From Bdellovibrionales bacterium (lineage in GTDB: Bacteria; Bdellovibrionota; Bdellovibrionia; Bdellovibrionales; JAUICD01), in NCBI GenBank assembly GCA_965262715.1, contig OZ253553.1:448001-512000 (forward strand): a DNA stretch of 64,000 nt, given 5' to 3'. Positions within the stretch are counted from its first letter, which is position 1. Each line of letters starts with the position of its first letter. Positions 28,714 through 49,623 of this stretch are shown here, piece after piece. A model generated the notes under the pieces. The model ran no database searches. It was given only the letters and a program-made list of their open reading frames with translations, and was not told where the DNA came from. The position numbers were made by a program, and so were the translations under genes.

Positions 28714-28925
28714 CTTTTTACCATCCGTGCATGGGCGCAGTTGTTTCCCTAAAAATGCTCTGGCCTCTGGCCACTTTTTGACAACCAGCCTGACTAGCTC
28801 TCGCTGTCAGGCAAATAGCTGGTTGTCTAAAAAGATTGAGCATTTTCAAGAGGGAGAATCCTCTTATTTTTTTTAAACGATGTTAAGAAAATGAGAGCTT
28901 TCTATTGCCCGTGCATGGGCGTAAC
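28714..28925 (-). CRISPR. Degenerate repeat - ~155-bp hairpin element - repeat unit 1
   Basis: Repeat variants at 28714-28741 and 28898-28925 flank a close copy of 34120-34274. Confidence 0.85.
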
Positions 28926-29135
28926 AACTAACTTTAGAAATATCCATAACTTATTTTATAATGGAGAAAGCTCCATGATGTTGAACTCGTTTTCAATTAT
29001 ATTAGAATAATTATCTTTATTTTCCCCTACAAATTCAGAACTGGATGCCATTTGAGAGGCTAAGCTTATTATTTTAGCTCCAATAGTTTCAAAAGTATCT
29101 TCACTGGATATTAATGGTAAATGCTCAGCAAACAA

Positions 29136-29462
29136 AATTACTATGTCTTTTTTATTTACATCTGAATGGGTATATATTTTATGCCAGATTCCTGCATAAA
29201 CTTTAAAGCCCATAACATGCCTATTCCCTGGAAGTCCATAGTCCCCACAATTTTCAAAAACTTGTTTAGCAGTATCCTCACCATCATCGCAAGGATAATT
29301 GCTAAACTTTTTACTAAAAGGATGTATATATAGGTCTTTATCGGGACTAATGAGATAAGCATGAAATTCAGCTTGGCCTTCATTAATAGCAGCAATACAA
29401 CCTTTATATGTATTACAACATATACTCTCAGACAAAACTCTTTTACATTCTTTTTGTGTAGA
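29136..29462 (+). repeat. 327-bp target duplication of IS1634 (second copy 31419-31571 + 32987-33160)
   Basis: Matching sequence on both sides of the IS; the second copy is split by IS256. Confidence 0.92.
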
Positions 29463-31418
29463 CCTGAGTTTGACAGTTGCGAAAATAAAGTTAAGTTATT
29501 TTAGTTAGTTACAGTGGATGTGTGATTTTGTACCACTACATTTTGATTTTGTGGTAGAGATTTAAGAGATTGTTTGTAGGTCTAAGTAGATTCTACTTTA
29601 AGTTGTTTTGATGGGATCTTTGCTCCAATAGCTTTAAATACATCAGCATTGTTACCGTTAATATCTGTTCTGATCCAAAGTGTCTTATCCTTTACCCTCA
29701 CAGGTATAGCTCGTACTTCTTTCAGCTTTGACATAGCTTCTGCCACACTCAATGGCCTTGACTTTATTCTCTTGTCTGTAATTGCTTTATCTTTTAATGT
29801 GATGTTTCTCTGATGTAACTTCTTTGAAAAATAAGCCTCACATAAGTAAGATAAAAAACACACAACTAAATGTCCTAAGATCCTCTTATCTGTCCAGTGG
29901 AACATAGGACGTGTCTTTAATGTACCTTTCAATTCTCTAAATGAATTCTCTACCTTCCATAATTGCTTATAGTTCGTTATAATCTCTTCAGAACTTAAAC
30001 TATCTGTATTTGTAATGATTCCAAAAAAACCATCTGTCCTCTCTGATTGTTCTATGGCTGACTTATTTAAAGTAGGCTTGCCTTTACTCTTAGGATGAAT
30101 AATATACTTCTTATAATTGCTATTAGATACAAAATCCTTTGTGCTTGATGACGATTTTGAAAGCTTATCTTCTAACTTAGATAGAATATCTTCTCTTACT
30201 TTCTTATCTCGTTCTGCTCTCTTTCTTGACCAGGTAATTATACAACGATTATCATTATAACTCGTCTCGTATATAGCTAAATTTTCATTTATAAATTTAA
30301 AATTCTTTAAATTGTATATCTCTGCATGACGATCCTTTAATAAACCTAGCTTTAATCCTACTATAAATTCATCTCCCTTTGCTTTTACAGATTGTAAATT
30401 CTCATTAGAAAATAAACCTCTATCTCCTACTAATATAAATCTTCTGATCTTAAACTTCTTTTTTAGTTTCTCCATAACTGAAGGTATGGTTTTACCTTCA
30501 AAGGTATTTCCAGGATAAACATCAAAGCCTAAGGGCATACCTTCTCTATCTACTAAAAGTCCAAATACCACCTGGGTACAATCACTCCTCTTCTCTTTGC
30601 TATAACCAAATCTTCGAAGATTATCTAAATCCTCTCGGGTACTCTCAAATCTCAATGTCGTTAAATCATACAAAATAACATCACACTCATTGAAAAAACT
30701 TAACTGAGACTTACCTTGTGTATAAAGAGTCTTCTCTATATCTTCCTTATGCTTACTTAGAATATCTAAAGAACGATAAATGTCTTGAAGATGAAGCTCC
30801 TCTTCTAAAAAATCAGGGTAAAATAACTTCTGCCAGTGTGAAAATACTTTAAGCTTAGAACATGGCTCTACAAAACGGCTTATAACCAATGTAAAAATAA
30901 TCTTAACAAAATCAAATTGTACTTTAGGGTGCTTTTGTTTTAAATCTGTTAATAATTCATAGAGATTTAATTGTTTGAAAATAGCATCTATTATAAGTAA
31001 GGGACCTAATATAAAAGTGTCTTTAACATCAATCTCTTTTAATAACTTACTAGCAGGAATTATCTCTAACTCTTTAGATAATACTTCTAGAAGCTTCTTC
31101 AAGTTAACTTCCTTATCCGCGGCTTTACCTAAAGACATTAGAATCCTTTGCTTCACTTGAGAACCTAATCTGTAGCTCTCAACAAGATGATAATATATGT
31201 CTCCTCTCGGATTTCTTGTAGACCTTATGAACATAAAAATACATTACAAGAAAAATATAAAAAATAAAAGAAAATAAGGTATATGACGCGTAGTGTATGA
31301 TAAATAAGTACACTACACTTTTTGACCAAAATACAAACACAATAACCGCTAATGACTATAAATACAACATTCCTTGAAAAAAATATCACGAAAATTCAAA
31401 TTAAGTGTCAAACTCAGG
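29463..31418 (-). mobile_element. IS1634-family insertion sequence
   Basis: 13-bp TIR cctgagtttgaca/tgtcaaactcagg; long direct repeat; transposase inside. Confidence 0.93.
29582..31234 (-). CDS. IS1634-family DDE transposase
   Basis: LYDLTTLRFE, FGYSKEKRSD, VGDRG, YKQLWKVENSFRELK, RPMFHW. Confidence 0.93.
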   Translation of the reverse strand: MFIRSTRNPRGDIYYHLVESYRLGSQVKQRILMSLGKAADKEVNLKKLLEVLSKELEIIPASKLLKEIDVKDTFILGPLLIIDAIFKQLNLYELLTDLKQKHPKVQFDFVKIIFTLVISRFVEPCSKLKVFSHWQKLFYPDFLEEELHLQDIYRSLDILSKHKEDIEKTLYTQGKSQLSFFNECDVILYDLTTLRFESTREDLDNLRRFGYSKEKRSDCTQVVFGLLVDREGMPLGFDVYPGNTFEGKTIPSVMEKLKKKFKIRRFILVGDRGLFSNENLQSVKAKGDEFIVGLKLGLLKDRHAEIYNLKNFKFINENLAIYETSYNDNRCIITWSRKRAERDKKVREDILSKLEDKLSKSSSSTKDFVSNSNYKKYIIHPKSKGKPTLNKSAIEQSERTDGFFGIITNTDSLSSEEIITNYKQLWKVENSFRELKGTLKTRPMFHWTDKRILGHLVVCFLSYLCEAYFSKKLHQRNITLKDKAITDKRIKSRPLSVAEAMSKLKEVRAIPVRVKDKTLWIRTDINGNNADVFKAIGAKIPSKQLKVEST

Positions 31419-31571
31419 AATTACTATGTCTTTTTTATTTACATCTGAATGGGTATATATTTTATGCCAGATTCCTGCATAAACTTTAAAGCCCATAACA
31501 TGCCTATTCCCTGGAAGTCCATAGTCCCCACAATTTTCAAAAACTTGTTTAGCAGTATCCTCACCATCATC

Positions 31572-32978
31572 GAGGTTGTCCCATAGATCGGTGAAATTTT
31601 CTTATAGGAATTAGAAGAAAGTAGAGCTCTCGGCTATCCTAAGTGGTCTAGCCGTTGTTTACTGTTTTTATTTTATCAGGAAATAGATAACAGAAAGGAG
31701 CTATTATGAAGAGTAGTAAGAATGGTTATTCAATTCAAGTTTTATCATCTGAGTCAAATGAGATTCGAGAGATCCTAGAGCATCGCATGAGATCAATGGT
31801 TATTAATATGATCCATGATTTCTTTGAGGATGAGTTATTATCACTGTGTGGTAAGCGTCATGTTCGTGGTCGTGATACAAGATATTACAGAGCGGGTAGT
31901 GATTCTGGGAGTGTTCTTGCACAAGGTCAAAGGCTTCAGGTGAGGAAGCCTAGGGTGAAGGAGAAGGGAGGTTCTGATATTAAGCTGCGGTCTTATTCAG
32001 TGCTTCAAAAGTATGACATACTTTGTGATAAAGTTTTGAGTCATGCTATGAGAGGGGTATCTTGTCGTAATTACAATGAACTTCTTGATGATATTGTAGG
32101 AGGGACGGGTCTTTCTAAGAGTACAGTGAGCAGAGTCTTTAATAAGTCATCTAGGAAGTTTCTTGAATCTTTAAATGGTCGTGATCTGAGTAAGGATAAG
32201 TTTTCATCAATTATGATTGATGGTGTTGTTTTTGGATCAAGGACAGTGGTTGTAGCTCTTGGCATCACAGTTGAAGGTAAGAAGTTAGTTCTGGGTCTTA
32301 GAGAGGGTCATACAGAGAACTGGGAAGTTTGCAAGGACTTATTAGAGAGTTTAATAGCAAGAGGTCTTTGTTCAGATAAGCCTTACCTTTTTGTAATTGA
32401 TGGTAGCAGATCTTTAAGGACAGCTATTAATAGAGTTTTTGGTAAGAGAGCAGTAGTTCAACGCTGTATTCACCACAAGGAGAGGAATGTTTTAAGTTAT
32501 TTACCTCAGGAACGTCATTTAGAGTTTAAGCGTCGCTGGAAGATGGTGCATGGTTTTAATGATTATGATTCTTCTCAGAGAGAATACAATAAGTTACTGA
32601 GTTGGTTAAGCAGGATTAATTATGCAGCATTGGCTTCACTTAAGGAAGCAAAGGAGGAGACACTGACAGTTATCAAGTTGAAGGTATCTCCACTGCTAAG
32701 GAGAACCTTATCTTCTACAAATCCTATTGAGTCTGCTTTTTCTATTGTAAGAGATAAAGTCAGCAGGGTTAAGAACTGGAGAAGTTCTCCAGATCAGGTT
32801 ATGAGATGGGCTGCTGCTTCTTTAGTTGAAGCTGAAAAAAAGTTTAGAGCTATTAAAGGGTATAAAGATTTAAATACAATGGAAGAAAATTTAAACCTAT
32901 TGACTAACAATAGAAACAGGCGTAGCAAAACATCAAGCTCTGCTTAACTTCAATTTCACCGAAACGTGGGACATCCTC
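31572..32978 (+). mobile_element. IS256-family insertion sequence
   Basis: Imperfect 27-bp TIRs (gaggttgtccca...ggtgaaatt); 8-bp TSD ccatcatc. Confidence 0.93.
31706..32947 (+). CDS. IS256-family transposase
   Basis: IMIDG, FVIDGS, QRCIHHKERNV, STNPIESAFS. Confidence 0.93.
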   Translation: MKSSKNGYSIQVLSSESNEIREILEHRMRSMVINMIHDFFEDELLSLCGKRHVRGRDTRYYRAGSDSGSVLAQGQRLQVRKPRVKEKGGSDIKLRSYSVLQKYDILCDKVLSHAMRGVSCRNYNELLDDIVGGTGLSKSTVSRVFNKSSRKFLESLNGRDLSKDKFSSIMIDGVVFGSRTVVVALGITVEGKKLVLGLREGHTENWEVCKDLLESLIARGLCSDKPYLFVIDGSRSLRTAINRVFGKRAVVQRCIHHKERNVLSYLPQERHLEFKRRWKMVHGFNDYDSSQREYNKLLSWLSRINYAALASLKEAKEETLTVIKLKVSPLLRRTLSSTNPIESAFSIVRDKVSRVKNWRSSPDQVMRWAAASLVEAEKKFRAIKGYKDLNTMEENLNLLTNNRNRRSKTSSSA

Positions 32979-34091
32979 CCATCATCGCAAGGATAATTGC
33001 TAAACTTTTTACTAAAAGGATGTATATATAGGTCTTTATCGGGACTAATGAGATAAGCATGAAATTCAGCTTGGCCTTCATTAATAGCAGCAATACAACC
33101 TTTATATGTATTACAACATATACTCTCAGACAAAACTCTTTTACATTCTTTTTGTGTAGATGTTGAATAATGGCCTTCATTTTCATTGGAATAAGTAAGA
33201 TTAGCATGTCCAGACTCATGCAAAAGAGTTTCAAAACTATTACCTTCAAAGAAGAGATCATCCTCATCTATTCTTAGAGCTATAGTATTTGTACCAGGAT
33301 GCCAAAGACCATTGACCCAACCAACTATATTGTATTCATCAGAAAATGTGTTCTTATCCATCAATTTCACATTTATACTTCCATCTTTTGCATAAAAAGT
33401 GCCTGCATTTAATTCCATCCATTCTTTTTGATACATAAGCCAGTGATAAACTGATGCTTGATGACCTGTTTTATTAATATCATTGAGGTTACTCTTTGTC
33501 CATTTACCCTTTGTAAGAGCAGCTTTTTTAAGTGGAGCATTATCCCAAAATGCTGATATTTTATAAGAAGCATTTTCAAGGGCATCGTTTGTAGAAGTAC
33601 CCAATATATTAACTCCAAACAAATTTTCTGTTGGAGGGTCTGACATATGTAGAGGATATTTTCTTTTAAAAATACAAGCATTAAATTCGGGATTTGTATG
33701 ACAGTCGGGCATCCTTTCTGATCCAAATCCCATTGAGGGGAGTTGAATTTCTATATCTACTGTTGTATTAGTCGTAGTAGTAACAGTAACAGTAGTCGTC
33801 GTTATAGGTGTCGCCTCTGATGTTTTTATCTCTGAATGAGATTGAGATTCTATCTTTTCAGTTGGTGATTCACAATTCTGAAAATTGATCGCTAAAAATA
33901 AAAGGGAAGAAGTTAAAATAAATATCTGTGAATATCGTTTCTCTTTTAAAAAACAATATTTCTGTCTCAGTGATCTTAACCTATAACTAAAATATTTTAA
34001 GATAGTTATAATCATTTTAAATCCAATAAGTCATTTATAATATAATCGGTATAGGTCTTAAATAACTTTAGAAATATCAATAATTTATTTA

Positions 34092-34302
34092 CTTTCTACC
34101 GCCCACGCATGGGCGCAGCTGTTTCCCTAAAAATGCTCTGACCTCTGGCCACTTTTTGACAACCAGCCTGACTAGCTTTCGCTGTCAGGCAAATAGCTGG
34201 TTGCCTAAAAAGATTGAGCATTTTTAGGAAGGAGAATCCTCTCATTTTTTTTTACAATGTTAAGGAAATGAAAACTTTCTACCGCCCACGCATGGGCGTA
34301 AC
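34092..34302 (-). CRISPR. Repeat - 155-bp hairpin element - repeat unit 2 (distal end of the main array)
   Basis: Degenerate repeat 34092-34119, element 34120-34274, perfect repeat 34275-34302. Confidence 0.9.
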
Positions 34303-35082
34303 TCCTCAGGAAGTCTTAGATAAATTTGATTATTCTTTCTACCGCCCACGCATGGGCGTAACTTTAAGCGATGATGATTTAAACGAGATTTTCGCTTTCT
34401 ACCGCCCACGCATGGGCGTAACTCGCAGCGCGCAATAATAAAGAATAAACTATTCTTTCTACCGCCCACGCATGGGCGTAACTTAACTACGAAAAAGACT
34501 TTAAAAATTGTGCACTTTCTACCGCCCACGCATGGGCGTAACAGAATGGGTAATCGACTAAAAGTTACAGATCTCTTTCTACCGCCCACGCATGGGCGTA
34601 ACTGTTATTATTTCAACATTGAGACTGATTCAATCTTTCTACCGCCCACGCATGGGCGTAACCTAAATAAGATGATCCATCCTCTGCGATCTCCCTTTCT
34701 ACCGCCCACGCATGGGCGTAACTTCTTACACTGCACCTGTTTCTTGATATCATTCTTTCTACCGCCCACGCATGGGCGTAACTCGCAGCGCGTAATACTA
34801 AAGAATAAACTATTCTTTCTACCGCCCACGCATGGGCGTAACTTACACACTTTATGTACGCACTCAGCCTATTGCTTTCTACCGCCCACGCATGGGCGTA
34901 ACAAGTTGTATAGAAGGGATTCTCCACAATCGCTCTTTCTACCGCCCACGCATGGGCGTAACCACATTAGTAATAACCACATCATCAACACCTGCTTTCT
35001 ACCGCCCACGCATGGGCGTAACTCTTGACGCACCTATATCAAGAATAAATTCTTCTTTCTACCGCCCACGCATGGGCGTAAC
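34275..35082 (-). CRISPR. CRISPR array: 14 identical 28-bp repeats and 13 spacers of 32 bp
   Basis: Repeat GTTACGCCCATGCGTGGGCGGTAGAAAG (minus strand), exact 60-bp period; CGCCCA-TGCG-TGGGCG hairpin followed by an 8-nt handle; only 44 bp from cas2. Confidence 0.99.
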
Positions 35083-35126
35083 ACATACATAAATATACTC
35101 AATAATATCAGTAAGTTTAAGATAAT

Positions 35127-35420
35127 TTAATGATTATTATTAATGCCTAATAGATGATTAAATATTCCTTCATTAGTTTGACGGCTTCTCAAGTCTCCAA
35201 AGACATAAGATCGAAATCCTAAATGATGAGTAGCATCAGACCATATAAATACCACTCTAAAATCTGTGTTTACTTTTTCCAATTCTTTTATAATTTCTTC
35301 TCTAATACCATTTTTTGGCCATACCCATACATCCATAGCTATTCTCCAACAGTACCTACCAATAATTCCACGAGCCTTATCACTTTTTTCTTTTAAAGCA
35401 TCATTAATAATAACAATCAT
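35127..35420 (-). CDS. cas2: Stand-alone Cas2
   Basis: 97 aa directly after cas1; MIVIIND start; RIAMDVW resembles the I-F Cas2 domain. Confidence 0.8.
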   Translation of the reverse strand: MIVIINDALKEKSDKARGIIGRYCWRIAMDVWVWPKNGIREEIIKELEKVNTDFRVVFIWSDATHHLGFRSYVFGDLRSRQTNEGIFNHLLGINNNH

Positions 35421-36296
35421 TCAATTATCCTTTTTAAAAACCTCATTTAATGTTCTCAATAAATAATTTAAAACGTCTATATCTAATACTAATTTCATAA
35501 ATTGATTTTTTATTTCTGTTAAACTCCATTTTTCTTTGGCAGCAATAAAAGAAAGATTTAAAGCAATGACAGGTTTGACAACATCTGCAAGATCATAAGA
35601 TAAACCTCCTCCTTTTGTTCTCCCATGTAGTACACCAATATTAGGATCATAACCTAAATGCAAAATGGTTAAATCTGCTAAAGAATAAGATAAAAAGTTC
35701 AAGAATGTGAGAAAATCTTTTTTCCCTCTAAAAGGTTTCCCTCTTGCCACTCTTGGAACATCATATTGCATAGCTAAAGATTTATAAGTTTCTCTTGCCC
35801 ATGCTCCTTCTTTTGATAAAAGTGTATTGATGGTGTCTTCATCCTTTCCTAAAGGAAATTCAGGTAGCTTTATAGAGGAATACTTCTTTATAAACAAAGA
35901 CCTCCTTTTAAAAAGAATTTTTGCAGATTCAATTCTTTTAACTTCATCACATATAATATTATGCTGTCTGATACGTGGAAGCGGTGACCTGTGCTGTGTA
36001 GAGCATAGATAAAGAGGAGCAGCATTGCCACCCATAACACCTATCAAACAACCCCTTGAAGATATAATCCTCATAGCTTCTGATGTGATGCTTGTGCCTG
36101 GACCTAAAAATAAGCCTCCAATGCCAGAAACTGGAATAGAATATTCTTCTTTTAAATTTGCTTTGAAGATTCTTATATCATTATCCTTTCTTTTAATCTT
36201 GCTATATTCTGTATAATAAAAAGGGATCCTTCTTGATAGAGGGATTAATGGTTGAACTTCATCAATACTGATATAATTCCGTTTAACTTGAGTCAT
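35421..36296 (-). CDS. cas1: Cas1 with mixed I-E/I-F features
   Basis: LGPGTSIT, KEG, VLHGRTKGGGLSYDLAD catalytic region. Confidence 0.93.
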   Translation of the reverse strand: MTQVKRNYISIDEVQPLIPLSRRIPFYYTEYSKIKRKDNDIRIFKANLKEEYSIPVSGIGGLFLGPGTSITSEAMRIISSRGCLIGVMGGNAAPLYLCSTQHRSPLPRIRQHNIICDEVKRIESAKILFKRRSLFIKKYSSIKLPEFPLGKDEDTINTLLSKEGAWARETYKSLAMQYDVPRVARGKPFRGKKDFLTFLNFLSYSLADLTILHLGYDPNIGVLHGRTKGGGLSYDLADVVKPVIALNLSFIAAKEKWSLTEIKNQFMKLVLDIDVLNYLLRTLNEVFKKDN

Positions 36297-38899
36297 TTTT
36301 TAAAAATCTTATTTAGAGTTTCTTTTTTAACTAATCCAAATTTTTTATGATACACTCTATGTGTTGTTTTTCCACTGTCTTCATCAAAAAGTGCTTTTTT
36401 AAAACATTCGTTTATTTCTTTATCAAAATGAGAACATAATAAAGGTCGCTCTGTTTTAAACCCAAAAGTTTTTATGTACCTATTGTATTCAAATACTTCT
36501 TGATCATTGATTTTATTCGCCTTATTGCATTTTGATATTGTCTTCAAACAAGTGCTCATAGCTTCTTCTATCTTCTTTATAAACCATATTCTACTTTCAT
36601 TAAGTAAATCCTCATCTCGTAGCTGATTTTGTAATCGTCCTTTATCATCCACAACACAAGCACTTAAAAGACGAGATTCACCTCTAAATAAACTGTTAAA
36701 CACCTGTGAAGATGCTTTTTTGTTTTTACCAAGTGAAAACCTTTTTGGAATATATTTATTTAATTCTTCAATAGCCTTTTTTTGCTGTTTTTTTAAAACT
36801 CCAAGAGATATCTCGATGTTTTCTTTACTCCAAAAAGTATCATAAACTTGCATAAGTTTTCTAATAGAAATAGCTTTATTATCTTGATCTATAATAAAAG
36901 ATAAAAAATGCTTTTTCCAATTCTGATGAATTTTTTTGAAATCTGCTTTTCTTTCATCAAAAAAGTTCTCTGATTCTTCATTGTAAATAAAATGAATTTC
37001 TGCATCTGGTTTGTTTTCAAACCTATTGATTCTTCCAGCAGTCTGACAATCTGTATGAGGCTGTGATAACTCTACGAGTGCTTTATCAAAGCTAAGATTG
37101 TAAGAGGATTGCAACATTTTAGATGTAATGACTGAATTTTGACTTATATAAGCGGTTTTTTGTCCATGCTCTTTTAAAATATTTTCCAATAACTCTTTTT
37201 TGTCCTCAGTTGTAAAATAGGTATGTATCATTTTTATTTGATCTTTATAAGTTTTAAAAAGACGAGAAAAGACTTCTTGGCAAGACTCAACCCTCAAGAA
37301 AGAATACAAACAATCAGGAATAAATTCTTTAATATCTTCTATTTCTTTCTCTTGAGCAGAAATTTTAAATTTGTGACCTTCTCTTGACGATAGTTCATCT
37401 CTTTTGAAAACAAATTTATCTTCTATATTAATATTAATTAGTTTTAAAAGAGATGGTTCTGGTGTTCCACTGAGCATTAAAGTTTTAACTCCAGAATCAA
37501 GCCAGGACCTAATAGTTAATACCTCTTTTAAAGAAGGAATCATTTTAGGAATATCTTTAAATTCATGAAACTCATCAAGAACTAAATGAGATCGAAGCAT
37601 TTTTACAAACTCTGAAGACTGGCTTCTCTTATAATAAGGGCTTAAAAATCGATCAAAAACCATGATATTAATATCTAAAATTAAAAAGTCCTCCTCCTCC
37701 TCTGGGTTCCAATTACAATGTTGTCTTTGCCCATTAAAAACTCCTTCTATTTTGATTTTTTGATCCCCATAAACTCTTTGGCTATCTTCTTCTAAAGACT
37801 TAGCCCATTAAAAACTCCTTCTATTTTGATATCCCCATAAATATCTTCTTCTAAGAGACTGGCAGGTAAATAAACCAGTGATTTGATGTTGCCTTGGAAG
37901 GGCTATCATTAAAGGATACTCATTATGGCAGTGATGCCACCAATAAAGTGCAATACTGGTTTTACCTCCTGCTGGATCAACTCCGCAAACAGAAAGTTTT
38001 TTATCTGACATTTTTTGGGCTAAATCATTCTGTTCTTTACTTTTTGGATTGTTATTCAGGTTTTCTAAAAGAATAGGTTTTTCTCTTTTGTGTGAATTAG
38101 TTTTAAAATTTTTCCAGTCATTTAAAAACCCTTGTAATTCTTCTAGACTCCAAGAAGAAACTGTCCTATCAGACTCAAGAAGTAAATTTAAACAAAGCTG
38201 CTTGCAGGCATTATCTATAACAGAATCCATTTTATGTTTAAAAAATTCAGGATATTGAAATCTTTTAACATTTTTTTGATTTGGATCTTCTAAATCTGGC
38301 GGACAATTTATCTTAAGATATGTTGAAAAAGAACAAAAAAGATCACAAATAAATTTATAAATTTGAAAAAGAACAAAAAAGATCACAAATAAATTTGCTA
38401 TTTGACTTTCTTTTACACTTTCAAAAATGTCTTTAGAATTTTCAAAACGTATTTTATTTTTTTCATCACACCAATTAGCTGAGTGATGCCAATAAACAGA
38501 ATGTTGAACCGTATCTTCTATTTTTTCATTTTGAAAACCAATAAAATTAGCAATGTAAGCCCAAGATATCTCATTGTGGAATGGCCCTTTAAATGTTTTT
38601 GGTCTAGAAGATTCAGCATCTGTAGGGAGTTCTATTGAGTCATTGTTATTAGATTTTTTCTTAATGTGATTTTGAAAATTATCTGAAACTTTTCCTATAT
38701 CATGTAATAGACTGGAGTAAATCAAATATTTATTGATCTTTTCTTCTTTGTCTGACTTGAATTTTAAGGATTTTAACAATAAATGCCCATAGAGGGCTAT
38801 GGCTATGGAATGCTCTTTTAAAGGTTGCCCTTTTGTATTGGCCAATAAAGTATTTTCATTGTTTTTTTGATTCTTGTTCATTGCTTTCTTCCCAGTCAT
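36293..38899 (-). pseudogene. cas3: Cas3 HD nuclease-helicase, no Cas2 fusion, interrupted by an in-frame stop
   Basis: LKEHS, LHDIGK, HNEIS, WHH (HD); GGKT, DEFH, QTAGRINR; both ORFs share a frame; TAA at 37808-37810 inside a 66-bp insertion. Confidence 0.88.
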
Positions 38900-38935
38900 A
38901 TTTTTTAATTTTCATCCCTGCTTTTCTTAAATCTT

Positions 38936-39940
38936 TTATTTTATTTGTACAAAAATATCATCTTTTATCTCATAACCACGTCCCATTTCATCCAAGCCTT
39001 CATAACTTACAAATGCAACTCCACCTTCACCCCATCTGGCTAGATTTGGGCCTTGCCTTAATTTTTCGATAAGTTCATCCCAAGCCCAATGCTTAGAGAG
39101 GTCTTGTTGATCTTCAAAGGCACTTTGTGCAAAATAAACATTGAAATCCACGCAGGCAATAAACGCAGGCTTTCCTCTCACAATTTTATGATATTTTTTA
39201 TCGACCCAAAATTTTGTAAACTTGGGACAAGCAAATGAGCTAAATTGATTCTGATTAAAATTTGTAAAATTCTGTCCAAATTTAGAGTCCTTTAAACAAA
39301 GAGAGTTGACTTCATCAATTATTCCCATAGTCTTTTTATAGATTGGTGTTCCTTTTTGTTGCATCTTTTTAAAATAAATCTTCATTTCCTTACCAAGCTT
39401 TGTATTAGGTATAGCTTCACTTCTAGGATTTTTTAAATCATCATACTCTGAGTCCTTCTTTTCAACTTTACTTTCTGAAATTCCTTCATTAACTGTACCA
39501 AGTGAATTTGTTTCAAAAATATTTCTTAGTGGTTGTTTAAAAAGTTTTATTGTTGGATTTGCCGTTTCAAAAGTGTGTTGATGAAGGTTCACATTAGGAT
39601 CAGCTTTAAAGTTTTTTGTATGAACATCTCTTCTTTCAAAAAAAGTAGTAACATAAAGTTCTGATACTTTTTTACAGGCAGATGCTTGAACCATTATATC
39701 CAAAGTAGTATTCAACTTTTGAATTGAGATATCAGTGCTATTCTCTATTTTCTTTATTTTTTGAGTTTCTCCCATTAAATAAGCAAATAAACCCTTTAAA
39801 GAACTTGATCTCACAAGAGGTAAAACTTTTTGATTCTTATCTGTTGGATGATCTGAAAGATTAAGATTGACTGGATTAAAATCTTTATTTTGTTTGATAT
39901 AAATACCACCAGATCGAACTTTTAATTGAATATAAGACAT
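38936..39940 (-). CDS. cas5: Cas5fv (Cas5f2)-like Cascade subunit
   Basis: 334 aa; KGLFAYLMGE, KIVRGKP and RWGEGGVAFVS resemble Shewanella Cas5fv as recalled; position after cas7. Confidence 0.7.
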   Translation of the reverse strand: MSYIQLKVRSGGIYIKQNKDFNPVNLNLSDHPTDKNQKVLPLVRSSSLKGLFAYLMGETQKIKKIENSTDISIQKLNTTLDIMVQASACKKVSELYVTTFFERRDVHTKNFKADPNVNLHQHTFETANPTIKLFKQPLRNIFETNSLGTVNEGISESKVEKKDSEYDDLKNPRSEAIPNTKLGKEMKIYFKKMQQKGTPIYKKTMGIIDEVNSLCLKDSKFGQNFTNFNQNQFSSFACPKFTKFWVDKKYHKIVRGKPAFIACVDFNVYFAQSAFEDQQDLSKHWAWDELIEKLRQGPNLARWGEGGVAFVSYEGLDEMGRGYEIKDDIFVQIK

Positions 39941-39954
39941 AATCTTTCACCACC

Positions 39955-40911
39955 CTAAGCTGCTTTTTTAGATTCTTCAAAAAAATGATGAAACTTTATA
40001 CTATTCAATTTTTCTTTTAAATCAGATTCACCTATATCCATAGAATCTTCTCCATCAAAGAAATGAACTGTTAAAGAGCCTTTCAGATAAGCTAATCTAG
40101 CTCCTGCTTTAAGGCCATGTATCATTTTGATTCTTTGAAATACTACTTTTACCAAATGACAGATTTGCTCTTGATTAAGTAAAATACCTGTTCTTGGATT
40201 TTTATAAACTGCTGTTGAATCAATATAATCCTTCACTTCAAGAGTTTCATCCACGCCATGTTTTTTAAAGTATTCTTTAAGAAGACTTATAAACTCATCC
40301 TTTTTGTCTTTAGGGATCATTGCAAAATCATTATCAACTCCATATAAAGATAAAAATTGAAGCTCTTTGAGATTGATTCCACCTAGAAGTTCTTGTTGTC
40401 TATAAGGAACATTGTCTTTTGAGAACATAGCAATATCACCTTTTTCTTTGCCTTGTGCTTTCCCTTCTTCTTTCGGTTTTGAACTTGAACCTTGGTCAAA
40501 AACAATTTCTACATCACCAATGGTTTGAGCATCTGCTATATGTAGAGGAGAGCATCTTTTAAGACCTTTAAGACCTTTAGAATCACCTTTTTCATCCGGC
40601 GATAAATAGCCTCTCAAAAGCCCGACTTCTGAAGCGACCATTTGAATAAATTGATCAGCAAATGTTTTGCTGGAAGGCTGTCTTGGTTGAATATCTTTAA
40701 AAATCTCATGTCTTATACAACGTGAAGATGTATAGTCAATTTCTTTTTCTAAACCTTTATCATCTTTAATTTTAAATATTTTTGCACCAATATTATTCTT
40801 GTACCATTGATTACTGTCAGGATCTTTTCTATCTTTTTTAGCATTATAGTTATAGATTCCCCATACATCTAACTTTCCTTCAAAAGTAATACATTTAACT
40901 TGCTGACTCAT
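39955..40911 (-). CDS. cas7: Cas7fv (Cas7f2)-like backbone subunit
   Basis: YTSSRCIRHEIF, ASEVGLLRGY, KRCSPL, FSK, LQFLSL, GILLN match Shewanella Cas7fv motifs in order, as recalled. Confidence 0.88.
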   Translation of the reverse strand: MSQQVKCITFEGKLDVWGIYNYNAKKDRKDPDSNQWYKNNIGAKIFKIKDDKGLEKEIDYTSSRCIRHEIFKDIQPRQPSSKTFADQFIQMVASEVGLLRGYLSPDEKGDSKGLKGLKRCSPLHIADAQTIGDVEIVFDQGSSSKPKEEGKAQGKEKGDIAMFSKDNVPYRQQELLGGINLKELQFLSLYGVDNDFAMIPKDKKDEFISLLKEYFKKHGVDETLEVKDYIDSTAVYKNPRTGILLNQEQICHLVKVVFQRIKMIHGLKAGARLAYLKGSLTVHFFDGEDSMDIGESDLKEKLNSIKFHHFFEESKKAA

Positions 40912-41446
40912 ACTTTTCTCCTCCTTTAATTAAAATTAATCCATAGCCATAAGACTTTCTTGATCCTATGCCTTCTGTTAATGCTTGATTAAATTTATCA
41001 TGATCTAAGATGTGAAATAATCCTTCTATGTGAAAAGCATTATGAACATGAAATTTCTTTTCACATTGAGGACCAAGAAATTCACAAGTTGCTTTATCTT
41101 CTTTAAGACCAGATAAAAAACAAAATTTTTCCAATGCCTCTTTTGAATACATTTTTTTAGGGACAATTGTTTTTCCATCTGTATCACGAAGTGATATATG
41201 CTTGTTACAAAATGCAACATGAGTTTCTAATTCTACCATCTTACAACTCTTATTTACCAAAACAGTCTTTTGAAAATTATGATGCAGGGATTTTACAGGG
41301 GGTATTTTTGAGAGAACATATAGTAAGTCACCTTGAGATAAAGATGGACATATATTTCGAGGTGAATTAAATAATTCTCTGATCAGTGAGTGAATTGATG
41401 AGTAACCTGCTTCAAATAGAGAAAAACAATAAATATTTCTCATCAA
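40895..41446 (-). CDS. cas6: Cas6e-like crRNA endoribonuclease
   Basis: YSSIHSLIRELF, LYVLSKIPP and IEGLFHILD..F..ALTEGIGSRKSYGYGLI G-loop typical of I-E Cas6. Confidence 0.85.
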   Translation of the reverse strand: MMRNIYCFSLFEAGYSSIHSLIRELFNSPRNICPSLSQGDLLYVLSKIPPVKSLHHNFQKTVLVNKSCKMVELETHVAFCNKHISLRDTDGKTIVPKKMYSKEALEKFCFLSGLKEDKATCEFLGPQCEKKFHVHNAFHIEGLFHILDHDKFNQALTEGIGSRKSYGYGLILIKGGEKYESAS

Positions 41447-41856
41447 ATAATCCTATATTATTAATGATCGATTGAAAAAATACATTGATTTTACTTGCTT
41501 TAGTTGAAGTGATGATTTGACTGTGGTATGACTAGGTGCTGTATTTATAGTTTATCGGATAATTAAAAGTTTTCTTAAGAGATCATTTTAAATTAAATAA
41601 GAATGTATGTTTCTTGATATGTTTTTGTTTAAGTTATGTTTCTTTTTAAGAACTTACAGATATTACTGGGGCTGTTGTTGTTTTATTTTAAGCTAGTCTG
41701 TTTAAAATATTCTTTTCTGGTTTTTTAACCTATAATGCTTAACAAAATACCAAATTTAAATAATATCTATTTTTTTTAAAGTTCTAAGTCCGCAAGCTAT
41801 TATATTTTTTTGAAGATGAATGACTTGATCACCTAAGTAGATACAGTAAAGTTGAT

Positions 41857-42069
41857 CTAACTTAAGGTGTTTTCAATGATTATTTCAACCCATGCTGTTT
41901 TTTTATTGTTATGTTCTATAAAGTTGCTAAATATGTAATCTTTACCATTGATTTTGACTTTTTGTCCCGTTTTCAGGTTTTGGTCATCCAAGTTATAGTC
42001 TAGACACTGTCTAACGATTAAAAACTCTACATCTTCTATATATTCTCGTTTAAATATCATTACTTTCAT
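41857..42069 (-). CDS. Small hypothetical protein
   Basis: 70-aa ORF with an AAGGA RBS upstream. Confidence 0.4.
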   Translation of the reverse strand: MKVMIFKREYIEDVEFLIVRQCLDYNLDDQNLKTGQKVKINGKDYIFSNFIEHNNKKTAWVEIIIENTLS

Positions 42070-42430
42070 ATTTCATATCCTTAAAAAAAGCTACCTAGAT
42101 TAGAACCTAAAGGGCTTTCACAGAAGTCTATTCATATTTTTATTACTGTGAAGCTTCGGCTTCTTTTTTGGTTTGCGCCTCTTCCTATTCTAAGGCCTTC
42201 TCATAACCAATTCAAGGTGATTTAGCATTTTTAAATGTCGATCAATAGCTCCTTGAGTTTGAGATGAAAGACAGTTATAACGGCTTCCTTTAGAGGAGTG
42301 TGCATATGATCTCTTAAACTGAACCTTATATTACATTTCACACGTTCCAAAGCCTCTTTGAAGCTCAAAATCTTCAATGTTAGGATGTTCTTCGGTTATG
42401 TCATGATGACAGTTATTAGCTTATGACATT

Positions 42431-42641
42431 CTTTCTACCACCCACGCATGGGCGCGATTGTTTCCCTAAAAATGCTCTGGCCTCTGGCCACTTTTTGACA
42501 ACCAGCCTGACTAGCTCTCGCTGTCAGGCAAATAACTGGTTGTCTAAAAAGATTGAGCATTTTTAGGAAGGAGAATCTTCTCATTTTTTTAAACGATGTT
42601 AAGGAAATGAAAGCTTTCTACCGCCCACGCATGGGCGTAAC
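42431..42641 (-). CRISPR. Repeat - 155-bp hairpin element - repeat unit 3 (upstream of the cas operon)
   Basis: Degenerate repeat 42431-42458, perfect repeat 42614-42641. Confidence 0.9.
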
Positions 42642-42979
42642 AAAAGTTTTCTATTCATTAATAATGAGTGTACAAGAATAATGGTTGAAAAGCTATATGA
42701 AATTTCGATATTGGATGTCGAGATTTCATACTATATTTATGTGTCTTTATGATACATTTGTCCGACTGCTTATCTTATGTACTTTTACATAGCTTATCTT
42801 GATTCATAATCTGATTATTTGTATTGATTTTCTATTCAAATGAGTTGAAGTGATGATTTGATTATGATATGACTAGCTGTACTTAATAGTTATCCAGGTG
42901 ATTAAAGATTCTCTTAGCAGGTTATCTTAATCCAAGATATAATATATCAAGATATAATAAGTCATAAGGAGTTAAAAGT

Positions 42980-48997: not shown

Positions 48998-49160
48998 CAT
49001 TTCCCTTAACATTGTGTAAAAAAATGAGAGATATCTACCTTACTCAAAATAAACAGATTTTTGAGGTAGCCAGCATTTTACTGACAGTGTGAACTGTCAG
49101 GCTGGTTACCCAAAAACAACCAGAGGCCCGCCTCGAGGGGTTGGTTTATTTTGAGTGAAA
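48998..49160 (-). repeat. Diverged copy of the 155-bp hairpin element without CRISPR repeats
   Basis: Reverse complement aligns with 34120-34274 (ggcctctgg, aaccagcctgac, tgtcag, gctgg, ctctcattttttt, caatgttaagg). Confidence 0.75.
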
Positions 49161-49623
49161 TAAATTAAATACAAAACATAATATAACTAAAGATGGCTTC
49201 TTACTCAAAATGGACAGACTTGACAAGAGCCACGATAGTGGCCCTACGGGAAGCCGTAAAGGTCCATTACCATTCGAGTTCAATGCTTCGATTTGTAAGC
49301 ACTTTATTTGAATGCCGGATAAGTAAGAAGTGATAATAGCTAATGATATGAATGGGAAAGAGTTCTGGCCTCAGGGCAATGATTTTGAAATTCAAGAAAT
49401 AAATTGAAGGTCCAGCTCAATTTGAGTGAAACAGTTCTTTTATGCGGTACTTAAATTAAGAGGTTGTTTTGAAAACGTGGATATTAGAAGTAATTTTGAG
49501 ATGAGTTCTAAATATGTACTGAAAAGAAACATTTTTAAAAAAATAAACTTACAAACTGTTTTTAAGTAATAAAAAAATAAATTCCTCTTTCACAAAAAGA
49601 GAAAAAACTTATATACTAAGCGT

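Follow-up and report, generated by a model that had tools for sequence, protein, structure and literature searches.

A locus in the genome of a Bdellovibrionales bacterium raises the question why nearly the same folded insert lies between two repeats of the CRISPR type (short palindromic repeats, clustered and regularly interspaced) at three places around a single cas operon, and whether this arrangement serves the CRISPR system. The analyzed stretch, called the window, comprises 64,000 nt (positions 448,001-512,000 of the forward strand of contig OZ253553.1, assembly GCA_965262715.1; genome G000, 2.94 Mb). The original prediction offered two answers, namely a structured RNA released by Cas6, or an element resembling MITEs (miniature transposable elements with inverted repeats) that inserts at CRISPR repeats, possibly using Cas1. 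Our analysis favors, with a probability of roughly 0.75, the reading that a genome-wide folded repeat inserted a single time where a CRISPR repeat ends and was copied twice nearby together with its flanking repeats, and that it is not a dedicated CRISPR regulator. The three repeat-hairpin-repeat units were found in array orientation as predicted, and together with the array they are built as follows (window coordinates):

28714..28925, minus strand: unit 1, consisting of a decayed left repeat (28714-28741), the element (28742-28891), a 6-nt remnant and a repeat (28898-28925)
34092..34302, minus strand: unit 2, consisting of a left repeat with the last 4 nt altered (34092-34119), the element (34120-34268), a 6-nt remnant (34269-34274) and a perfect repeat (34275-34302)
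34275..35082, minus strand: CRISPR array of 14 identical 28-nt repeats and 13 spacers
42431..42641, minus strand: unit 3, consisting of a left repeat (42431-42458), the element (42459-42607), a 6-nt remnant and a perfect repeat (42614-42641)

The sequences at the three sites are 89-100% identical to unit 2 and 89-94% alike among themselves, and the inserts are 156, 155 and 155 nt long in units 1, 2 and 3. Unit 2 is the last interval of the array, whose 13 spacers are all exactly 32 nt long, as had been stated. Unit 3 is an orphan unit about 1 kb upstream of cas6. Unit 1 is probably the old trailer end of the array; its repeats, with 8 and 4 mismatches to the consensus, are the array-type repeats furthest from the leader. 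Genome-wide, 19 repeat-like sites with up to 8 mismatches exist, all of them in this locus; the array accounts for 14 and the units for the other 5. The left repeats follow the consensus over their first 24 nt only (no mismatch in unit 2, 1 in unit 3, 5 in unit 1), and each of them differs from it at 2-3 of the last 4 positions.

Could the units be a product of mis-assembly, or of one segmental duplication with shared flanks? Both are extremely improbable. The three copies are distinct alleles, each of which is present in contigs of read set X1, and these contigs cross all three left junctions without differences. Run X5, which stems from a different strain and a second study (single contigs, depth 4-6), contains both a repeat-element and an element-repeat junction. 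Outside the repeats the flanks of the units have nothing in common, apart from one pair of 32-nt sequences (S1 and S2, see below), and this argues against a segmental duplication. What speaks for an assembly problem is that contigs of X1 and X3 lack two stretches of 66 nt and 27 nt that are found in the cas3 gene of the assembly, and that, among the listed X1 contigs, none bridges the element-repeat junction of unit 2 itself with zero differences. All in all, mis-assembly is already largely refuted.

The insert is not specific to CRISPR, but is one copy of a genome-wide non-coding repeat. It consists of 149-150 nt of a dispersed folded repeat plus 6 extra nt. A profile that was built from 99 non-CRISPR copies, leaving out the three units, yielded 456 nhmmer matches in G000, which amount to 60 kb or 2% of the genome and include 287 of full length; the reversed genome gave no match. 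The family occupies 221 loci, nearly all intergenic and without a clear strand rule; 2.9% of the matches lie mostly inside crude open reading frames (ORFs). At 100 of the 221 loci 2-16 copies are clustered in tandem. A further copy is present in the window itself:

49001..49161, minus strand: fourth family copy, without CRISPR repeats

The family is abundant in G001, a genome of the same genus, and sparse in G004; counting G000, it occurs in 3 of 41 genomes and was not found in the 38 other relatives searched. Another dispersed family, with a repeat about 158 nt long (49263-49421 in the window), has 38 matches in G000, 18 of them of at least 120 nt, and many copies at 81-84% identity in G001.

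The nested stems of the original prediction do exist. The fold of unit 2 has a z score of -9.45 as minus-strand RNA and of -7.75 as DNA, with none of 200 shuffled sequences folding as well, and the stems that had been named are intact in unit 3 but for one pair, while units 1 and 2 have a few stem mismatches. Across the family, compensating changes preserve a three-way junction (25 of 33 well-kept pairs occur with at least two Watson-Crick types in 229 distinct copies). The claim that about 40 unpaired nucleotides follow the repeat handle did not hold: this region is not specially open, with a mean unpaired probability of 0.36-0.47 vs. 0.29-0.72 for the 13 ordinary spacers. No Rfam covariance model matched positions 28000-50000 at E values up to 1.

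The three inserts differ from one another by only 9-13 of 155-156 nt (92-94% alike); the family member that comes next reaches 81% identity. Therefore, they descend from one insertion, and the idea that each unit is a separate insertion was not borne out. The history of the units can be followed further with strain X5 and with the sequences between units 1 and 2:

28926..28957, minus strand: S1, the 32 nt directly after unit 1, identical to S2 at 28 of 32 positions in exact register
34060..34091, minus strand: S2, the 32 nt directly before unit 2
28956..34015, minus strand: gene G, between S1 and S2, interrupted by two transposase genes
29582-31234: transposase gene of the IS1634 type within gene G
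31706-32947: transposase gene of the IS256 type within gene G

A single-repeat site, of the kind to be looked for in related strains, was indeed found in X5: at the position of unit 1 this strain has a single decayed repeat without the element. At unit 2 the element is present in X5, with 60 extra nt between S2 and the unit, which is the length of one repeat plus spacer. By their sequences, S1 and S2 are probably one former spacer that now exists in two copies. In the simplest reading there was one array, gene G split its last spacer and thereby doubled it, and unit 1 stayed behind as the old trailer. Gene G belongs to a family with at least seven other tblastn matches in the genome. In X5 it is free of insertion sequence (IS) elements, and the whole 3,698-nt interruption is absent. 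The IS1634 and IS256 insertions in G000 are accompanied by exact duplications of 154 nt and 182 nt (29136-29462, 31419-31572, 32979-33160).

Between units 1 and 3 the repeats differ at 8 of 52 positions and the inserts at 9 of 156 (p 0.04), and two repeat changes that are common to both repeats of unit 1 are also present in the single repeat of X5. This pattern fits a younger element that recombined into an old repeat; a deletion in X5 would yield the same single repeat, so that the change could have run in either direction. A 32-nt spacer of X5 was aligned over the last 11 nt of the unit 2 insert (34264-34274); if the alignment is exact, this would be the spacer from before the insertion, but no conclusion here rests on it. 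Among the listed X5 contigs, none covers the left flank of unit 3. Unit 3 and two small ORFs of unknown function (41857-42069 and 42231-42377; PADLOC gave no match) are bracketed by a 91-nt direct repeat of 76% identity (41502-41591 and 42843-42930).

How does the family insert? The left junction is precise. The 209 distinct copies include 44 that come after the left stub of another copy, 28 of these at exactly 26 nt, and in G001 four of five nested copies begin at 26-27 nt. The right junction is loose; in several nested copies about 14 nt of unrelated sequence intervene before the sequence of the host copy continues. A target-site duplication of fixed length (2-10 nt, 36 settings, 209 flank pairs) showed no general excess, the exceptions being one 4-nt setting (7 vs. 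1.5) and one 5-nt setting (3 vs. 0.55). Long duplications are found instead. Direct repeats with a score of at least 14 surround 24 of 137 copies with clean flanks (1.2 expected; many in tandem arrays) and 9 of 58 isolated copies (0.41 expected), two of which are CRISPR units and seven non-CRISPR; the family is often placed between such repeats of 20-55 nt. For 53 of 262 copies, the three units among them, both flanks are common with a partner more than 1.5 kb away.

The ends of tRNA genes are favored sites. A family copy lies within 60 nt of 10 of 39 tRNA or transfer-messenger RNA (tmRNA) calls, vs. 1.6 expected. Left ends were found at -3 to +8 nt of a tRNA end seven times (0.24 expected, p 7e-9), in five cases at the CCA end and in two, on the opposite strand, at the 5' end, and right ends once (0.29 expected). 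The closest analogue of the CRISPR units is downstream of tRNA-Pro, where an exact 30-nt tRNA fragment stands on both sides of the element, and 10.7 kb away the same element occurs again together with part of both flanks, without any link to cas genes. The target-element-target layout is thus found at tRNA-Pro as well as elsewhere outside CRISPR, and therefore no Cas protein is needed for repeat-element-repeat units or for copies of them nearby. Thus, of the proposed MITE-like element at CRISPR repeats, the dispersed non-coding repeat between duplicated repeats stands, while the need for Cas1 falls away. Two tandem arrays at tRNA genes were also seen: at a tRNA-Ser gene (G000:C1:858165-861000) each later one of seven copies comes after 38 nt of the tRNA 5' end, and at a tRNA-Arg gene (G000:C1 1103535-1104410) the copies are separated by tRNA 3' fragments.

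The following course of events is proposed. A single event would have placed one copy of the three-way-junction repeat at the old end of the CRISPR array, joined to the end of a repeat as the family joins the ends of tRNA genes. Recombination or local duplication would then have carried the element with its two flanking repeats to two further places nearby. We infer a single-stranded, structure-guided insertion, and likewise the order of copying and the gain, or loss, of the element at unit 1. Should transcription reach the end of the array, Cas6 is predicted to free a 183-nt RNA from unit 2 as a by-product without a target, and unit 3, given a promoter, would yield an RNA of the same length.

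The related genome G001 contains the same operon (Cas1 83%) in a different neighborhood; no common gene order around the locus was found between G000 and G001, and a synteny-based comparison of empty sites failed. The last interval of its array measures 313 nt and contains an altered repeat, two inverted family copies and a 21-nt tail. The repeat before this insert is altered in the same last 4 nt as the left repeats of G000. The same 21 nt stand before the outer repeat as well, an arrangement that has the look of a local duplication of recent date. The first inserted copy is 69.8% like unit 2 and ranks 63 of 262, and the insert is either independent or an old junction with its interior replaced. 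Two spacers of the G001 array (L020:4870-5200) each occur three times in a row. The arrays of G205, G286 and L067, with 22, 6 and 19 repeats, have only spacers of 32-33 nt and no insert; G205 and G286 are the only other Cas7 matches in 401 genomes. Searches with Cas7 against genome contigs and with Cas1 against metagenome contigs found no relatives.

Several observations weigh against the reading of a family member that landed once and was copied locally. No mobilizing enzyme was found. The only Y1 gene of G000 has end hairpins of its own, with the nearest element match about 1.8 kb away, and no Y1 gene was found in G001 (90% complete) or G004; IS110 genes number zero, the two tyrosine recombinase genes are not bordered by elements, and reverse transcriptases number three in G000 and zero in G001 and G004. 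Next, the sharing of flanks at unit 3 ends exactly at the repeat ends, which a capture of random flanks does not predict; local copying is the only account that we can offer for the origin of this unit. The link to tRNAs is weaker in G001 (3 of 30 tRNAs examined, 35 having been found, with about 0.76 expected, p 0.04), and the strict tRNA-end pattern occurs zero times in G001-G004. Two more tRNAs of G001, read by eye, have nested stacks with the outer stub within about 7 nt of the end. A general targeting of hairpins had to be rejected (10 of 142 left flanks vs. 11.2 in shuffled sequences; an earlier version of the test gave 6 of 137 vs. 3.5, with a maximum of 7). Finally, repeat position 29 is exactly where the family member in the last interval of G001 begins. 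In an intergenic stretch as long as an array, about 0.3 element loci would be expected, and therefore the presence of an element in the G001 array is unremarkable, unlike its exact register. The shared register exceeds chance and could reflect targeting, an involvement of Cas1 or an old retained junction; it is the best hint of real targeting.

An involvement of Cas1 would mean that Cas1-Cas2 integrated an excised element as an oversized spacer and duplicated the repeat. Position 29 is the spacer junction, and the conserved left end of the element lies there in both G000 and G001, which speaks for this model. Moreover, related repeats end in CAAC or AAAC, so that the altered last 4 nt may stem from an older repeat type. 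Nevertheless, we regard such a capture as quite unlikely. Every ordinary spacer has 32-33 nt, compared with 155 nt for the insert. The junction is imprecise: changes to the left repeat are concentrated in its last 4 nt (2/2 and 3/4, and 4/4 in G001), and 6 or 10 extra nt are found on the other side. No leader-like flank was found at units 1 and 3. In addition, the same layout arises at tRNA fragments and other sites.

Another rival explanation sees a domesticated RNA similar to CRISPR RNA (crRNA) in the units. A 183-nt RNA with a handle, released by Cas6 and kept by selection, would repress a promoter or soak up Cas6 and Cas7, in the manner of CreA or of RNA anti-CRISPRs (Racrs). Units 2 and 3 retain foldable repeat hairpins, and by structure Cas6 would probably cut both of them and release 8 + 155 + 20 = 183 nt, in our reading as a by-product. 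Unit 3 lies where regulatory mini-arrays occur, upstream of cas6, and an element is present in the array in both genomes of the genus as well as in strain X5. In the type I-Fv system of S. putrefaciens longer spacers recruit more Cas7fv (PMC4937334), and therefore a decoy effect is conceivable; interference drops beyond about +9 nt (PMC4937334). All scored non-Watson-Crick stem pairs in the three copies are compatible with G-U pairing on the array strand. This strand bias was rejected as an argument, because there are too few cases and a similar lean runs through the entire family (203 vs. 143). Pairing of the repeats of units 2 and 3 with each other at equilibrium was also dropped, because 12 of 12 ordinary repeat-spacer-repeat controls behaved the same.

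The evidence on the other side makes a CreA- or Racr-type regulator quite improbable, and this part of the original prediction was not supported. With a CC protospacer adjacent motif (PAM), assumed from related I-F systems, no seed-perfect flanked site with up to 8 mismatches exists genome-wide (0 of 3, 8 and 7 candidate sites), and no CC-flanked seed match lies upstream of cas6. No sigma-70-like site was found on the minus strand upstream of unit 3. The arrangement is not conserved in related loci: no orphan repeats were found in G001 (whole genome with up to 3 mismatches, 50 kb with up to 9) or in G205 and G286 (20 kb each), and the G001 insert is of another build. It also varies between strains, the unit 1 element being absent in X5. 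The repeat hairpins of unit 1 are broken; they lack the basal C-G pair, which is required by Cas6f of type I-F (PMC10651486). Viral contigs had no match to the repeat pattern and none to the element-end pattern. CreA and other mini-arrays (bioRxiv 10.1101/2023.03.03.530964) and Racrs (PMC10651486) resemble the units in having two repeats, one of them degenerate, near cas genes and apart from the array. They differ in that the insert here has 155 nt and is not short, has no PAM-flanked promoter target, is not conserved, and is chromosomal, whereas a Racr is a solitary repeat unit on a phage or plasmid.

Mobile elements inside CRISPR arrays, MITEs included, have already been published, and as a result of CRISPR biology the present case is modest. 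In Anabaena sp. PCC 7120, a 134-nt MITE separates arrays CR_6 and CR_7 (bioRxiv 10.1101/2020.04.14.041012, citing Hou et al. 2019). That MITE, too, is short, non-autonomous and situated within a CRISPR array; here, in contrast, a fixed target duplication is missing, the terminal inverted repeats are weak, the left end keeps to the register of the repeat end, and two further sites contain the repeat-element-repeat unit as well. Spacers of at least 100 nt, most of them transposon-like, are reported for arrays of E. coli, P. aeruginosa and S. thermophilus (PMC4524480; Kupczok), a source whose supplementary table S4 may contain closer cases. Here, by contrast, hundreds of copies in the same genome reveal the source family and the habits of its junctions. 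Tn7-like transposons (PMC11837452) provide another parallel, because one family inserts at both tRNA genes and CRISPR arrays; however, they encode Tns proteins and read a shared sequence motif, while the element described here is non-coding and most of its copies are at neither target.

The family is short, non-coding, multi-copy and intergenic like a classical MITE mobilized by a DDE transposase, but has no target-site duplication of fixed length. For terminal inverted repeats, the best register gives a mean of 8.6 of 15 matches over 208 cores. With REP/BIME sequences and their TnpA-REP enzymes (PMC3333891) it has in common hundreds of intergenic palindromes, local tandem amplification, variable linkers and no fixed target duplication, and like REP/REPIN sequences it exhibits clustered tandem amplification and covarying stems. 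In contrast to REP/BIME, the element has about 149 nt with a three-way junction, no REP-flanked Y1 gene was found, and the GTAG/GGAG tetranucleotide at the foot of the hairpin, a REP feature (PMC3333891), is rare (3 of 208 cores at the left end and 1 at the right). The family thus works like a REP/BIME-type or MITE-like repeat, yet belongs to neither by these features. Literature searches, with most subscription journals outside their coverage, found no description of it. New at this locus are the register of the junction, its likeness to the junctions at tRNA ends, and the fact that repeat-element-repeat units have spread as a whole.

It seems unlikely that the family represents a new class of element, moved by neither DDE nor RAYT enzymes, which docks on CRISPR repeats and tRNA ends and makes mini-arrays whose 183-nt RNAs, produced by Cas6, tie up the minimal Cascade. 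If it did, stem ends would be read in single-stranded DNA, and CRISPR repeats would be true docking sites beside tRNA ends. The reading of one insertion with local copying offers a route by which orphan repeats and units similar to mini-arrays can arise beside cas genes without being regulators, which is relevant for anyone who mines genomes for CreA- or Racr-like RNAs. In addition, the locus exposes the junction habits of an abundant family, namely a fixed left end, a variable right end, long duplications and a preference for tRNA ends. With these habits known, the mechanism can be tested with defined targets.

The remaining features of the CRISPR locus are the following:

35083-35126: presumed leader, an AT-rich stretch adjoining cas2
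35127..41446, minus strand: cas operon, without cas8
35127-35420, minus strand: cas2, a separate gene
35421-36296, minus strand: cas1
38899-36293, minus strand: cas3, split in this assembly
38936-39940, minus strand: probable cas5, with only weak model matches
39955-40911, minus strand: Cas7fv-like gene
40895-41446, minus strand: cas6

The direction of the array was deduced from the direction of the cas genes, the AT-rich stretch by cas2 and the 8-nt tail after the repeat hairpin. The order of the cas genes is the same in G001, G205 and G286. From its sequence, this compact type I operon can be called I-Fv-like only; its agreement with I-F2 is incomplete, and it may represent a subtype not yet classified. 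The Cas7fv match reaches 89 bits vs. a cut-off of 200, and Cas6 and Cas2 match I-E models. The break in cas3 is caused by an imperfect 66-nt tandem duplication (37801-37866), and a second extra stretch of 27 nt is located at 38366-38392. Both are lacking in X1 and X3 contigs, as noted above, and the 66 nt also in X5; they are probably an assembly error or a minor variant. Without them cas3 is one frame of 837 codons, and therefore the CRISPR system is probably intact.

A comparison of the spacers with phage records gave one chance match only (E 0.8). Spacers 3 and 9 (34423-34454 and 34783-34814) differ at 2 of 32 nt, and spacer 13 (35023-35054) is similar to them; this suggests, at the level of sequence, that spacers were repeatedly acquired from variants of one target.

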